From assembly GCA_048940445.1 (NCBI GenBank), contig JBHLON010000014.1, positions 14,536 through 78,535 on the forward strand: a stretch of 64,000 nucleotides of DNA. The letters run 5' to 3'. Below are positions 55,884-62,618 of this stretch, piece by piece. The position numbers and the translations under genes were made by a program. The stretch comes from Promethearchaeota archaeon. GTDB lineage: Archaea; Asgardarchaeota; Lokiarchaeia; Sigyniarchaeales; SOKP01. Positions within the stretch are counted from its first letter, which is position 1. Every line of letters begins with the position of its first letter. Below the pieces are notes generated by a model, which searched no databases, was not told the origin of the DNA, and saw nothing but the letters and a program-made list of their open reading frames with translations.

Positions 55884-56888
55884 TTGAATGACGATTCTTT
55901 AAAAAACAAGATTGAGACTCTAGAATCGGAATTAGAAAGAAAGCATAAAGAAATTTCAGAACATATAGATAAAATACAAAATCTTGAAGATACCATAATG
56001 GAAATAGAAGCAACAGTCTCTAACTCAGATAAAGAACATAATCCATACTTACAGTTCCGAATAAGAGAAATGGAAAAGAGTTATCGAGAATTAAAAGATA
56101 AAATTAGTTTACTAAAGTTGGAAAACATAAGATTAAAGCAAAATCTTGATGAAGCCAAAAAGAATCCGATATTAATACCTGTTATGGAAGAGAAAACTCA
56201 AGCAGAAAATACAAAAAATACATCAAAATTATCAAAACAGTCTGATGATATTCAAGAGCAAGAAGAAAATATTAAACAAATCCTTATAGTTTGTCCAGAA
56301 TGTGCAAATCGAAAATCATTAAAAGTTCCATTAAAGGTAATAAACCAAAGTGAAAATGTAACAACTATTAGTGTTCCTTCAGGAATAGTTTGTACGCATA
56401 ATTTTCAGGTTTTTGTAGATAAATTTTTTGCCATAAGAGGTTATCAATTAGCAGATTTTGAATTTCCTAGAATAGAATATTATGAAAGTAGCATTGGAAG
56501 TCAGGGTATAAATAATGCTTCTGAAAGGAATTTACCTTCATCCCCACAATTTCAAGAAATAATTAATGTTTTAAGAAAATGTGTAGATAATCGAGAAATA
56601 CTCGGTAGTGCTATCTTTACCATTGAAGGAAGGGTTTTATATACTTCAATTCCTCAAAAAACTTTATTTAATACAATCCGAGAGTTTGAAATTAGAAATG
56701 AGAAACATGTGCATAGTGTTATTAAAATGTTCCTTGAATTAAAGAATCAGCAAAAAGTTTGTTCAGAAAATTTGGAAATACAAGGTATAGAATTTATACT
56801 TGTGTTAGTTTTTTCTAAAAATGTAAATTTTGGCATTGGAAATATGCTTTTGAAAGATGTAGTAAAACAATTAAAGGCACTTAGCTAA
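55884..56888 (+). CDS. Coiled-coil, Zn-ribbon and roadblock-like domain protein
   Basis: N-terminal heptads; CPEC...C.H.F..FVD..F.IRGYQ..DF; ILGSAIFT.EGRVLYTS...N.G. Confidence 0.6.
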   Translation: MNDDSLKNKIETLESELERKHKEISEHIDKIQNLEDTIMEIEATVSNSDKEHNPYLQFRIREMEKSYRELKDKISLLKLENIRLKQNLDEAKKNPILIPVMEEKTQAENTKNTSKLSKQSDDIQEQEENIKQILIVCPECANRKSLKVPLKVINQSENVTTISVPSGIVCTHNFQVFVDKFFAIRGYQLADFEFPRIEYYESSIGSQGINNASERNLPSSPQFQEIINVLRKCVDNREILGSAIFTIEGRVLYTSIPQKTLFNTIREFEIRNEKHVHSVIKMFLELKNQQKVCSENLEIQGIEFILVLVFSKNVNFGIGNMLLKDVVKQLKALS

Positions 56889-56890
56889 AA

Positions 56891-58983: not shown

Positions 58984-61900
58984 CTACCATTATTATTTAA
59001 TTGAGAGGCCCTTTTGAGACACTCTTTAATTCTTTCTCTAAATTCTTCTACATTTTTAATTTCCTTATCTTTTCCTAACTTTACTAAAAATTCCGATATC
59101 TTTTCGCATTTTTCATAAAGTTCAGCTGATTTTTCATAAGTCTTAGCTTCCATATATGAATTAGCTTGTTTATATAGCTTAAATCTTTGATATTCTAAAT
59201 TTTTCAAATTCTTTTCATCTGCTTGAAATAATTGAATTAATTCTGATTGGTAGATATCAGCTATCTCAACATCTTTTAATCTAAGTGATAATTCAATTAA
59301 ATCATTATACAATTCAAAAATTGCTAATGAATCTTTACCCAATTTCTCTATTTCTAGTAGTTCTAATTTTTTTTCACGTTCTTCTGCTAAATGTTTGATA
59401 CTAATTCTTAAATTTGAAAATTCAAGGGCAATATCTTTTTTACCCATTCTTAATAGTACTTTCTCTGCAAATTCAAATTGTTTTTGAGCCTCTAGATATG
59501 CTCCTTCCGCAAATAGTTCATCACCAAATTTCTTAATTCGATCTATTCGATTTTTAAGCATTTCTTCATCTATTGATAAATTCTGTTTCTCAATAATTTT
59601 CTTTGATTTCTTTTTTGGTCTCTCTTTTTTTATTGAATCGAAATCTGAGCTTAAGATTTTATTTACATGTGAAATAATAAGCTTAAGGGGAATTATTTCA
59701 CGAGATGGCAAAATTTTTTTCTTCATTCTTCTTCTTGCTATGATAATTGTTAAGCTAACACCAATTACACTTAGTAGCACTACTACTATAATAATCAAAT
59801 TCATGAAGAAAGGATCCGCAAGTGTAACTATTGAAAAACTACCCATAGTATATTCACTTTGATGACCAACTCCATCAATTTGATACAAAAAGAAATAATA
59901 TCTACCTTGAGAAAGATGTTCTTTTAATTCAAAAAAGCTACTTTCAGATCCGGTATTTGAAATGCTAAAATTATAAACGCAACCGGGAGTTATATCTGGA
60001 TCAGTTTCGTTGTCAATTATTAAGATGTAATTGGAAATACCAGACGGATCATTGCCGTCCAGCCAGTCGAATATGAGCACTCCACTTACATCTCCACTCG
60101 GAGCGTTAGTTATAATAGGTGCCGAGGGAGCTATAGTATCTTCAACGTCAATATTATTCTCAGTATAATTGCTATTACCACTATTATCTTCTATATATAT
60201 TTTATATGAATAATTACCACAAGAAAGTGGTTTCCAAGAATTATATTGCCAGATATTCCCGTAATAAATTGACATAGAATGATTGGAACCTTCAAATTCT
60301 ATCAAAGTCTTATTAATACCCGCAAAATCAAAAATTTCTATCTTGATATCTGCCGTATTTCCTAATTCTAAAGTGTCAGGGGCTTCTAAATCGTAAGCAG
60401 GTGCAATTGTATCTTGGAATACAATTGAACCATACGTGGAGTTATAATTATTGTTGTTATCTATCATATGTATGGTATATGAATAATTCCCTATTCTATT
60501 TGGCACCCATGTATCGTAACTCCAACGATTTTCTCCATAATATGACATAGAATGATTCAAAGCTTCATATTCTAACAAAACCTTTTTAATACCCGCTATA
60601 TCACTGACAGAAATTGATATGCTTAATTGAGTGCCTAATTCTACAGGATTTGGATTCTCTATTAAATCTGAATAGGATGGTGAAATTGTGTCCTCAACTG
60701 TTATATTATTCAGACTCGTGTTCCAATTATCATTATTATCTTGAACTAAAATTGTGAAGGGGAGGATTCCAGCTTTAGATGGTTTTAAAAAATCACGAAA
60801 ATATGTATTTCCTTCCTGCCAGATCATTGGTAGATTATTTCCTTCAAATTGTATTCTAACCTGTTTAATTGATGATAAATCCCATACATCAACACTAATA
60901 TTAAATGAATCACCTAATTCTAAAAGAGTAGAACCAATAGATAAATTTGCAATATTTGGAAGAGTAGAGTCAATAATATCAAAACTACTTGTCAATTTAT
61001 TCCAATTATTTCCTGTGTCGTTTGCATGAATTGTATAGATAATAATCCCAACTGCATTCTTAGTCCAAGTAAAATTATATGTATTGCCACCCCCAAACGG
61101 TACATTCATAGTGTAATTTATAGATTCTATTTCGATTAATACATTTGTAACATAAGTTTCAATATCAAATACATCGGCTTTGATAGTGATAATGTCTCCT
61201 AATTCTAATGGATCAGAACTTTCAGTAATATTTTCTATGACGGGTGCTTCTGATGATATAACTGTAAAGTTGTAAATCGCACTTACGTTCAAATTTTTTC
61301 GATAATCTATCATATAGATCTTATAATAATAAATTCCTTCTAATATTGGCTTCCAATTACTCCAACTCCATGTTGATCCGCTAAAATTTTGCATTGTATG
61401 ATTCTTTGGAGTTGGATCATTGTATTCTAATAAAACTTGATCTATTCCTGAACCAGGTGAGTCAAAAACTTTAACAGAAATTGTTTCATTTTGTCCCAAT
61501 GGTAATGGATCTGCACTTTCAATTATGTTTGAGTAAGTTGGAGCAGTAGTGTCTATTACAATAATTAACCCAGATGTAGAATTCCAATTATTATTATTAT
61601 CTTCCATCCATATGGTATATGATTTATTTCCTACACTTGTAGGAATCCATGAATTATATTCCCACATATCTCCGTTAATATATGTCATCGAGTGATTTAA
61701 ATCTTCAAAATCAATCAGAACTTGGTTAATACCCGATGGATCTGTCGTATTTATCCTTATAACTTGAGTATCACCCAATTCTAATGGATAATCCGGAATT
61801 TCAACTAAATCTGAATATGTAGGGGGCGTGCTATCAGGGAGCGGAGCTATTGCAATCGATATACCTACCCATTTCTCTGAGCTTGGTATTGTAAAAGTAC

Positions 61901-62618
61901 CTGATCCCGTACTACCTGCAGCCGTCTTATTAAAAGCGGCAGTAGCGCTTGTTAGCGTATTATAACCCGCATTATTTTGAAAGAGAGGTACTGTTCCGCT
62001 TGGCCATCCTGAAACACTCCAATCATCATCTGAAGCAAACATTTGAAGAACCAAACAATCATCAATTGTTGTGATTATCGAAGGTGCAGTAGGATTTGAG
62101 CTCACTCCCGTTGTTAATGCTGATTGATGGATAGGATTATTTGTATCAAAACTATTAATACGATAAATTACGCCGATCCAAATCTCGTAATAACCATAAC
62201 TAACTCCCCATGTGTATGATGAGGGTTCGGAATTACCTATCTTCCAATAAGTAGCTAACCTCACATCTTCACCAAAAGAACCTCGATAACCATTTTCTAT
62301 TAGATTCCAACCAGGGGGAACTGTTGTAAGAGGAGTATCATCATCCATGGCGATTTGGGCGATATATAAATCACCGTCTGGTCGATATGAAGGCATATTG
62401 ACAATAAAATTAGTCGAAGGAGTATATTGTATTGTGATTTTACTATCTTCGATTGAAGAAGAACTATTGATTGGAGTTGGTGCATCAGCTCTCTTATTTG
62501 GTTTAAAAGTCGAATTGAAACTGTTAAAAAGCATTGGATGAAAAATTAAATTAAATACAAGTAAAATAAAGAGAAGATAGATTGATTTTTTCCTATTATT
62601 AGATAATAAGCTTCTCAT
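58980..62618 (-). CDS. Large single-pass surface protein: Ig-like repeat stalk, TM, cytoplasmic helical/TPR-like domain
   Basis: Signal peptide, six ~95-aa D...P......PLELG repeats, TM then RRRMKKK, ~250-aa helical tail. Confidence 0.8.
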   Translation of the reverse strand: MRSLLSNNRKKSIYLLFILLVFNLIFHPMLFNSFNSTFKPNKRADAPTPINSSSSIEDSKITIQYTPSTNFIVNMPSYRPDGDLYIAQIAMDDDTPLTTVPPGWNLIENGYRGSFGEDVRLATYWKIGNSEPSSYTWGVSYGYYEIWIGVIYRINSFDTNNPIHQSALTTGVSSNPTAPSIITTIDDCLVLQMFASDDDWSVSGWPSGTVPLFQNNAGYNTLTSATAAFNKTAAGSTGSGTFTIPSSEKWVGISIAIAPLPDSTPPTYSDLVEIPDYPLELGDTQVIRINTTDPSGINQVLIDFEDLNHSMTYINGDMWEYNSWIPTSVGNKSYTIWMEDNNNNWNSTSGLIIVIDTTAPTYSNIIESADPLPLGQNETISVKVFDSPGSGIDQVLLEYNDPTPKNHTMQNFSGSTWSWSNWKPILEGIYYYKIYMIDYRKNLNVSAIYNFTVISSEAPVIENITESSDPLELGDIITIKADVFDIETYVTNVLIEIESINYTMNVPFGGGNTYNFTWTKNAVGIIIYTIHANDTGNNWNKLTSSFDIIDSTLPNIANLSIGSTLLELGDSFNISVDVWDLSSIKQVRIQFEGNNLPMIWQEGNTYFRDFLKPSKAGILPFTILVQDNNDNWNTSLNNITVEDTISPSYSDLIENPNPVELGTQLSISISVSDIAGIKKVLLEYEALNHSMSYYGENRWSYDTWVPNRIGNYSYTIHMIDNNNNYNSTYGSIVFQDTIAPAYDLEAPDTLELGNTADIKIEIFDFAGINKTLIEFEGSNHSMSIYYGNIWQYNSWKPLSCGNYSYKIYIEDNSGNSNYTENNIDVEDTIAPSAPIITNAPSGDVSGVLIFDWLDGNDPSGISNYILIIDNETDPDITPGCVYNFSISNTGSESSFFELKEHLSQGRYYFFLYQIDGVGHQSEYTMGSFSIVTLADPFFMNLIIIVVVLLSVIGVSLTIIIARRRMKKKILPSREIIPLKLIISHVNKILSSDFDSIKKERPKKKSKKIIEKQNLSIDEEMLKNRIDRIKKFGDELFAEGAYLEAQKQFEFAEKVLLRMGKKDIALEFSNLRISIKHLAEEREKKLELLEIEKLGKDSLAIFELYNDLIELSLRLKDVEIADIYQSELIQLFQADEKNLKNLEYQRFKLYKQANSYMEAKTYEKSAELYEKCEKISEFLVKLGKDKEIKNVEEFRERIKECLKRASQLNNNGS

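Follow-up and report, generated by a model that had tools for sequence, protein, structure and literature searches.

The 64,000-nucleotide (nt) stretch of a Promethearchaeota archaeon genome analysed here (contig JBHLON010000014.1; hereafter the window; the genome is low in GC, ~30%) carries between positions 55,884 and 62,618 a compact set of four genes, centred on a Rag-family GTPase, that we propose to be a functional module. An earlier note, made from the sequence alone, had placed three minus-strand open reading frames (ORFs) and one convergent plus-strand ORF in this interval, and all four are found exactly there (Table 1). In order of transcription the three-gene unit encodes a large surface protein (gene 1), the Rag-family GTPase (gene 2, hereafter Rag) and a 290-aa protein that looks like an NPRL2-type longin (gene 3), while the convergent gene 4 encodes a protein with a zinc (Zn) module and a roadblock domain (hereafter the Zn-roadblock protein). 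The 4-bp overlap originally described between genes 1 and 2 has to be revised: because every Rag orthologue in our alignment begins MKKIPGT, the start of the window Rag is probably ATG 58977 rather than the upstream TTG chosen by the ORF tool, which would leave a 2-nt gap after the TGA of gene 1 (TGA-tt-ATG). The 14-nt gap described between Rag and gene 3 is indeed present and carries a Shine-Dalgarno-like GGAGGA, and the stop codons of genes 3 and 4 lie 2 nt apart, as the convergence had been described.

Table 1. Features of the four-gene module, in window coordinates
Feature	Position	Strand	Basis or remark
Probable promoter region for genes 1-3	62619..62967	-	Intergenic, AT-rich, 349 nt, upstream of gene 1; sole long spacer in the unit
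Gene 1, 1212-aa single-pass surface protein ('receptor')	58980..62618	-	ORF; orthologues 5' of Rag in related genomes
Gene 1 residues 35-260, membrane-distal domain	61839..62516	-	Differs between orthologues; without Pfam match
Gene 1 residues 261-819, six Ig-like repeats of ~90-95 aa	60162..61838	-	Self-BLAST; Pfam Big_7
Gene 1 residues 820-935, seventh domain, membrane-proximal	59814..60161	-	46-72% identity over orthologues
Gene 1 residues 936-962, transmembrane helix then RRRMKKK	59733..59813	-	Hydropathy maximum 3.22
Gene 1 residues 963-1212, predicted helical cytoplasmic tail	58983..59732	-	Invariant EGAYLEA; weakly TPR/MIT-like
Gene 2, Rag/Gtr1-family GTPase	57778..58977	-	Probable ATG 58977; ORF tool starts at TTG 58983
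Rag residues 3-102, conserved N-terminal domain	58678..58977	-	15-orthologue alignment
Rag residues 103-283, G domain	58135..58677	-	GLSNAGKT, DLGGQ, HKID
Rag residues 284-401, C-terminal roadblock domain	57781..58134	-	Robl_LC7; aligns with Gtr1 and RagA C-terminal domains
Rag-longin spacer, 14 nt	57764..57777	-	Rag stop to longin-gene ATG; contains GGAGGA
Gene 3, 290-aa NPRL2/NPRL3-like protein	56891..57763	-	Longin domain, roadblock-like domain and C-terminal helices
Gene 3 residues 1-130, longin domain	57374..57763	-	VIA-align
Gene 3 G15-P16, 'GP motif' just before longin strand 2	57716..57721	-	At least 90% conserved, 37 family members
Gene 3 R69, candidate arginine finger	57557..57559	-	Strand 4-5 loop, GNLDRR; conservation of 90% or more among Rag-linked members
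Gene 3 residues 133-222, roadblock-like second domain	57098..57367	-	VIA-align
Gene 4, 334-aa convergent protein	55884..56888	+	Coiled coil, Zn module and roadblock domain
Gene 4 residues 130-189, beta-rich Zn module	56271..56450	+	C137, C140, C170, H172
Gene 4 residues 221-334, complete roadblock domain	56544..56885	+	VIA-align

Gene order, which the earlier note had suggested comparing across Lokiarchaeia, is kept in five genera, and the module has been duplicated whole. Among the 60 relatives sampled first, with wider flanks read by tblastn, the gene 3 family occurs in 12 of 36 same-genus genomes and in three other genera, each time with the surface-protein, Rag and longin genes in that order on one strand and the Zn-roadblock gene convergent to them. 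A phylum-wide search of 301 genomes with a longin-domain profile places gene 3-type proteins in five genera and three families, all of one class. Besides the window's own locus, Rag stands directly upstream on the same strand in 25 of 25 loci, the convergent Zn-roadblock gene is present in 21 of these 25 (for one of the four exceptions the contig is too short to hold it), and the tail of the surface protein is found within the 1.5-kb flank in 15. At the conserved loci identity drops as low as 42-46% (Rag) and 35-37% (longin protein). Genes on either side (oxidoreductase, trehalase, solute-binding protein) are common only to the closest relatives. One genome (G011) has two whole modules, of which copy a groups with the window module and copy b with that of G017 by Rag, longin and Zn-roadblock protein alike (identities in that order of 70/58/50% vs 62/53/38%, and of 73/58/42% vs 61/53/38%). 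These congruent rankings indicate that the module was duplicated as a unit and that its parts have since diverged together; the two resulting subtypes differ in the distal domain of the surface protein. Taken together, the tight spacing, an order conserved despite 35-45% identity, the changing flanks and the duplication of the whole unit argue that these genes work together. Six metagenome studies of mangroves and sediments contain the DNA, and no RNA dataset is among those listed.

Gene 2 proved to be a Rag-family GTPase in every test applied. It had been read as a Rag-type GTPase with an HKID G4 motif, a roadblock C-terminus and an extra N-terminal domain of ~100 aa, and Pfam, motifs and alignment bear out each of these parts. 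The Pfam model Gtr1_RagA (PF04670) matches residues 106-309 with E = 4e-40 (~138-139 bits vs a cut-off of 22), with Arf next at 52 bits, and among the 33 loci of the genome that match this model the window Rag scores highest. Robl_LC7 matches its C-terminus (residues 284-370, E = 1.1e-8), and its closest relatives in the PDB are Gtr1 (1.2e-23), RagA and RagC, over residues 103-388, that is, the G domain and the C-terminal domain. The columns of the G1 (GLSNAGKT), G3 (DLGGQ) and G4 (HKID) motifs are invariant in 15 orthologues, over which a mean column identity of 72% makes Rag the most conserved part of the module. The N-terminal domain has its own invariant residues in the same alignment (K5, I6, G8, T9, P61, N63 and R64). 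For this domain the ESM Atlas offers no usable feature match, and its structure neighbours, a mixed group, all stay at TM <0.5; nothing here points to a longin fold. The module holds one Rag gene; titles in the PDB list a RagA-like homotetramer (8yl2) and monomer (9m28) from Asgard archaea, both Lokiarchaeal, as well as a roadblock-longin structure (8yqg). Elsewhere in the genome, outside the window (G000:C107:73610-74605), two adjacent frames that match the Rag/Gtr1 model carry an in-frame TAA and TAG and may be a decayed GTPase gene.

Gene 3 had been called a longin/uDENN-like protein. Structure prediction confirms the longin fold, and 'NPRL2/NPRL3-like longin plus roadblock-like domain' describes the protein more accurately than 'uDENN-like'. 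It has no Pfam match and belongs to a narrow family, and its ~210 homologues are all annotated as hypothetical proteins of Loki-type metagenome-assembled genomes (MAGs). In the AlphaFold2 model, built from a 37-sequence alignment (predicted local distance difference test score, pLDDT, 90.5; predicted template modelling score, pTM, 0.89), residues 4-103 run beta-beta-alpha-beta-beta-beta-alpha, the order of a longin domain, and a second alpha/beta domain is followed by helices. With the whole chain as query, Foldseek returns NPRL2 chains first (E = 8e-5 to 6e-4, probability 0.96-0.99), the identity of which we confirmed from their PDB sequence, and 8fw5_C (400 residues), which is presumably NPRL3, and yeast Npr2 align over both domains (167-173 residues). 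Eukaryotic NPRL2 likewise provides the nearest named clusters in the ESM Atlas once the family of gene 3 itself is set aside. When the longin domain is taken alone, VIA-align gives Z scores of 11.7 for a Lokiarchaeal longin, 10.5-11.2 for NPRL2 (root-mean-square deviation, rmsd, 3.1-3.3 over 122-124 residues, model residues 1-154 on chain residues 6-162), 10.6 for VAMP7, 10.1 for Lst4, 9.7 for Ykt6 and 9.1-9.8 for FNIP2. The second domain aligns with LAMTOR chains (Z 8.2-8.5, rmsd 2.1-2.2, 81-82 residues), with the C-terminal domain of LokiRagO, an Asgard RagA-like protein (8.3), and with MglC (7.9). Gene 3 thus looks like an NPRL2-type longin, though it is not a demonstrable member of the NPRL2 family.

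Longins that act as GTPase-activating proteins (GAPs), namely FLCN, NPRL2, SMCR8 and C9orf72, carry a GP motif before strand 2 and a neighbouring arginine finger (Traffic 2025, PMC12290439), and gene 3 has the motif and a candidate for the finger. Its GP stands at the start of strand 2, which spans residues 15-23 in the model. An hhalign comparison of the longin profile with NPRL2 residues 7-83 places this GP onto G20-P21 and, after a 7-residue insertion in gene 3, LSQDFISK onto VPEDFISR; at 35% identity over 26 columns (P = 0.0025, probability 12%) the register is consistent, but the alignment is not significant alone. The strand 4-5 loop that holds the putative finger R69 also carries R78 in the PDB sequence of NPRL2, and from longin topology we infer that this loop and the strand 1-2 loop share one sheet edge. 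Kinship with FLCN through an 'LAR' motif was considered and is not supported: FLCN reads SLAR164G, yet hhalign of the R164 segment to the longin profile gives no alignment (P = 0.43). One paralogue of the gene 3 family (L036, G047:C217:1533-2486) has lost both GP, where it reads NKF, and R69, and has a 210-aa ORF upstream in the place of Rag. This is a single case, and we count the joint absence of both motif residues and of the Rag neighbour in favour of a link to Rag.

The convergent gene 4 contains each of the elements that had been read from it, a coiled coil, a Zn module of the form CPxC...CxH and a roadblock domain, which proves to be complete. The N-terminal coiled coil is missing in most homologues, which are 206-225 aa long, and the Zn-ligand residues are invariant or nearly so among 40 sequences, with beta strands in the model. 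For the folded core (pLDDT 78.6), VIA-align returns MP1-p14 (LAMTOR2/3) at Z 14.0 (rmsd 2.2, 106/116 residues), an MK-D1 roadblock protein at 13.0, MglB at 12.1-12.3 and the C-terminal domain of an Asgard RagA-like protein at 11.7. Up to E 0.1, Pfam PF03259 (Roadblock/LC7) matches neither gene 4 nor any of 12 orthologues, although a homologue is entered in one JGI record as 'Roadblock/LC7/MglB family'.

Hydropathy and self-BLAST agree with the description of gene 1 as a single-pass protein of 1212 aa with six Ig-like repeats. Hydrophobic segments lie at residues 12-34 and ~938-961, and 29 NxS/T sequons fall on the outer part of the protein vs 2 in the tail. The repeats (residues 261-355, 356-447, 456-541, 550-635, 643-733 and 736-819; self-BLAST E 1e-10 to 7e-29) match Pfam Big_7 at 25.8 bits, for a cut-off of 24.1. 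Between them and the membrane lies a seventh domain that is unlike the six repeats, was absent from the earlier note's list and is the best-conserved part of the ectodomain. Repeats and membrane-proximal domain are kept in all orthologues compared. The distal domain, by contrast, is 50-55% identical in close orthologues and 12-16% identical, that is, unalignable, in L029, L030, L031, L033 and L034, and it is replaced outright in these more distant orthologues. No ligand-binding domain was recognised in the ectodomain by a Pfam scan. On the inner side the 250-aa tail, rich in K, E and L, has no paralogue in the host genome and retains 33-71% identity in most orthologues, falling to 17% in the most distant (L034). 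Its resemblance to TPR is weak: of 8 orthologous tails examined, 4 match TPR_2, all below threshold (best E 0.0085); the MIT model gives E = 0.007 against a cut-off of 30 bits. Feature matches for the tail in the ESM Atlas (0.79-0.83) equal the level of the shuffled control and were dismissed.

Longins related to gene 3 are widespread in the phylum. The MPxG-longin domain occurs in 203 of the 301 sampled genomes, usually in several copies, of which the window genome (G000) has seven, six besides gene 3. Linkage of these longins to GTPases depends on the subfamily. A second, distant Rag-longin pair occurs in the genus g47, of another family: 14-18 nt separate a 352-aa Rag-like GTPase (Gtr1_RagA 1.3e-16, HKQD) from a downstream MPxG-longin of 324-342 aa (L064, G128:C4:6070-9438; L065; L066) that has weak winged-helix matches in its C-terminal half. 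A Ras/Rab-type GTPase (Pfam Ras 2.5e-47) lies directly upstream of a GP-longin with a long helical tail at L037 (5689-7801), L038 (7948-9599) and L098, and next in line at L037 is an ORF of 189 aa that weakly matches ubiquitin (8.6e-5). Arf/Roc-like GTPases of 280-309 aa adjoin 358-398-aa longins in four families. At L100 (1-6128), L086 (3754-10337), L094 (3669-10945) and L092 (903-6110), a 360-400-aa MPxG-longin adjoins a protein of ~1370-1580 aa; those of L100 and L092, the only ones with Pfam matches, are Ig-like/beta-sandwich surface proteins (Invasin_D3, CarboxypepD_reg, DUF2341, Big_1), and an Arf/Roc-like GTPase with a ~120-aa N-terminal extension is often found near longins of this type. 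The recurrence of a surface protein-small GTPase-longin theme with non-orthologous parts modestly supports a functional tie of the surface protein to the switch, though not any direction of signalling. The window genome itself has, on a short contig (L073/L109, G000:C22:1-3664), an ORF with Big_1 (Ig-like), then a 375-aa MPxG-longin paralogue, then a TrmB-like regulator, and no GTPase was seen on this contig. A stand-alone GP-motif longin of 125-135 aa (LPVGILVIRWDNEIGP...; L068/L105, G000:C108:13353-13736, and orthologues) occurs in almost all genomes of the family (E ~1e-23), never beside a GTPase, and it could be a free longin subunit that pairs with multi-domain longins.

We lean towards the view that the module is an accessory, self-contained set of four genes by which some Lokiarchaeia assemble a Rag-type GTPase switch at the membrane, with the 290-aa protein as direct regulator of Rag, the Zn-roadblock protein as platform and the tail of the surface protein as tether. 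Rag itself would be the switch, and the surface protein, with its variable outer tip and conserved inner helical tail, would hold it at the membrane. The NPRL2-like longin protein would regulate Rag directly, most likely as a GAP acting through its GP-motif loop and Arg69, and the Zn-roadblock protein would be a Ragulator/MglB-like platform that pairs with the roadblock domains of Rag, of the longin protein or of both. That gene 3 is specifically a GAP for Rag is a plausible proposal that still falls somewhat short of probable. In this model we infer the physical contacts, any sensing of an extracellular ligand by the surface protein, GAP activity and whether signals run outside-in or inside-out. 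A complex prediction of Rag, GTP, Mg and the longin protein (one job, both proteins given as alignments) has a median score of 0.39, but one control with an unrelated protein scores 0.37, so that the prediction weighs neither for nor against an interaction. Of the three outcomes that the earlier note named as refuting its idea, two are contradicted by the data: gene 3 does have a longin fold, and the gene order is conserved.

Several observations weigh against this view. The Pfam models NPR2, NPR3, Folliculin and longin match none of 37 gene 3-family members at E up to 10, and in the PDB a profile of the entire family and one of just the longin domain both return chance matches only, with no eukaryotic GAP longin among them. 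A profile search of 1.84 billion representative proteins finds 37 clusters of the gene 3 family, none of them eukaryotic. Because there is no sequence match to NPR2 or Folliculin, the link to NPRL2 is one of fold and motifs. Over the whole chain the TM-scores reach just 0.23-0.30 (Foldseek) and 0.42-0.44 (Atlas), which is low, and in these models the fold alone cannot separate GAP-type from SNARE-type longins, the Z scores of which lie within ~1 unit. The candidate finger is also placed differently, R69 standing 6-7 residues before strand 5 vs 2 residues for R78 of NPRL2. In g47 the Rag-linked longins read EGV instead of GP and have no Arg in the loop. In eukaryotes a longin GAP is built from two different longin proteins, and the module has no second longin gene that could supply a heterodimer partner, no second Rag and no DEPDC5-like gene; gene 3 may form a homodimer or pair with another longin paralogue of the genome, which has six besides it. 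Around 41 mixed longin genes, relatives included, GTPases occupy 7 of 80 adjacent positions vs 8 of 198 control positions; this general linkage, only ~twofold and subfamily-specific, is not used here as support. Finally, the module is patchy, occurring in ~40-55% of sampled genomes in its two main genera.

Many longin or roadblock platforms are guanine nucleotide exchange factors (GEFs) rather than GAPs, and the roles within the module might accordingly be swapped, gene 3 being a GEF or a nucleotide-state-specific scaffold, as are Mon1-Ccz1, TRAPP, DENN and Ragulator, and the Zn-roadblock protein an MglB-like GAP. Roadblock and longin platforms of this kind are described as mainly GEFs (PMC10933270), the multi-longin GEFs Mon1-Ccz1 and Fuzzy-Inturned are among the Foldseek matches of gene 3 (E 7e-4 to 1e-2), and MglB, a roadblock-fold GAP for MglA, matches gene 4 at Z 12.1-12.3. 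We nevertheless think such a swap unlikely: GAP longins carry the GP motif, which is missing from the longins of TRAPP, adaptins and DENND proteins (PMC12290439), gene 3 has a conserved Arg in its strand 4-5 loop, and NPRL2 outranks Mon1-Ccz1 in the PDB search and alone appears in the Atlas search. A further-reaching reading, that the module is a working prokaryotic counterpart of Rag-GATOR1-Ragulator at the cell membrane, in which the tail would gather the roadblock domains of Rag, longin protein and Zn-roadblock protein in the role of LAMTOR1, the longin would be a true arginine-finger GAP and events at the variable outer tip would set the nucleotide state of Rag, seems to us equally doubtful.

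The nature of gene 1 admits another reading, in which it is an adhesin or surface-layer component rather than a ligand receptor, its tail merely anchors, and Rag acts inside-out or locally, in site marking, placement, clustering or turnover. A stalk of Ig repeats, 29 glycosylation sequons and a swappable tip are typical of adhesins, the Pfam scan recognised no ligand-binding domain, and large Ig-repeat surface proteins recur beside longin and GTPase genes in other lineages. GTPases of MK-D1 are reported to lack lipidation motifs (PMC10933270), and the tail would supply the anchor that unlipidated Asgard GTPases require at a membrane. The combination of a conserved stalk and tail with a variable tip would also suit a family of receptors, and we assign the adhesin reading a low probability. 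That the four genes are neighbours by descent only, with no joint function, is very improbable. All carriers belong to one class, so that the loci are not independent, but the order is kept at 35-45% identity while the flanks change, the spacers measure 2 and 14 nt, the whole module has been duplicated with congruent divergence of its parts, and the folds encoded are those that regulate Rags in eukaryotes.

Genes on either side appear not to belong to the module. Upstream, 349 nt 5' of gene 1, a gene for a family-5 solute-binding protein (SBP_bac_5, 6.9e-29; 62968-63999, minus strand) runs out of the window. A gene of this kind also lies near the module at L024, on the opposite side, and other loci are without it; not being conserved beside the module outside close relatives, it is probably not a member. 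The trehalase and 2-oxoacid:ferredoxin oxidoreductase genes past gene 4 were set aside as members as well, being conserved only in close relatives.

Asgard Rag-like GTPases with roadblock or longin fusions have been reported (Tran et al. 2024, PMC10933270), and the GTPase genes of MK-D1 are generally not in one operon with roadblock or longin genes, so that pairing is hard to predict (PMC10933270). Whether GAP-type longins of Asgard archaea partner Arf-related or Rag GTPases has been left open (PMC12290439). The module helps to fill this gap, the question of which regulator serves which Asgard GTPase, by naming one cognate set: Rag, an NPRL2-like longin with mutable G15, P16, R69 and R70, a roadblock protein and a membrane partner, all small enough to express. 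It thus offers a matched, testable set for how Rag regulation worked before eukaryotes. Should the longin prove to be a GAP for Rag, the pairing of Rag with a longin GAP would reach back beyond the eukaryotes and would first have worked at the tail of a surface protein rather than at the lysosome; if the counterpart reading were true, longin-GAP regulation of Rag would be older than its link to TOR and the lysosome.

The nearest eukaryotic system is that of the Rag/Gtr GTPases with GATOR1 (NPRL2-NPRL3-DEPDC5; SEACIT in yeast) and Ragulator/EGO. The module shares with it a Rag-family GTPase with HKxD and a roadblock C-terminal domain, a longin with a GP motif and a loop Arg whose nearest whole-chain structures are those of NPRL2/NPRL3, and, as in Ragulator, a separate full roadblock protein, the best match of which is LAMTOR2/3. 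It differs in having one Rag where eukaryotes have a heterodimer, one longin where they have two, no DEPDC5 and no detectable Pfam NPR2 homology. In place of the lipidated LAMTOR1 stands a single-pass surface protein with a helical tail, and the module Rag has an extra N-terminal domain. No TOR kinase is known downstream, the mTOR kinase domain being reported as absent from Asgard archaea (Liu et al. 2020, bioRxiv 10.1101/2020.10.19.343400).

Among bacteria, the MglA-MglB polarity switch of Myxococcus (with MglC and RomRX) likewise places a small GTPase under roadblock-fold regulators, of which MglB matches gene 4 and MglC the second domain of gene 3. MglA, unlike Rag, is Ras-like and has no roadblock domain of its own, and there is neither a longin partner nor a surface protein in the operon. 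The actinobacterial conservon (CvnA sensor kinase, CvnB roadblock protein, CvnC, CvnD GTPase) resembles the module in grouping the genes of a membrane sensor, a roadblock protein and a small GTPase; its sensor is a histidine kinase, its GTPase is MglA-like rather than Rag, and it is not known to include a longin.

Closer to the window, an operon described from Asgard archaea (Liu et al. 2020), in which a LAMTOR1-like roadblock protein and a DENN protein accompany a Rab-like GTPase, shares with the module the conserved combination of a small GTPase with roadblock-type and longin-type regulators; its GTPase is stated not to be a Rag, its regulator is a DENN protein and it includes no surface protein. 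The Asgard GP-motif and NPRL2-like longins already described (PMC12290439; Liu et al. 2020, in Thor and a few Loki MAGs) have, like gene 3, GP before strand 2, a conserved Arg and predicted similarity to NPRL2/FLCN/SMCR8. Those longins were described alone, whereas the partner of gene 3 is indicated by a conserved operon; the gene 3 family may be among those described. Our full-text literature search, with subscription journals outside its coverage, found no description of an Asgard operon of a Rag and an NPRL2-like longin. Rag-like GTPases, NPRL2-like longins and roadblock proteins are each known in Asgard archaea, and the apparently new element is a Rag-specific operon.

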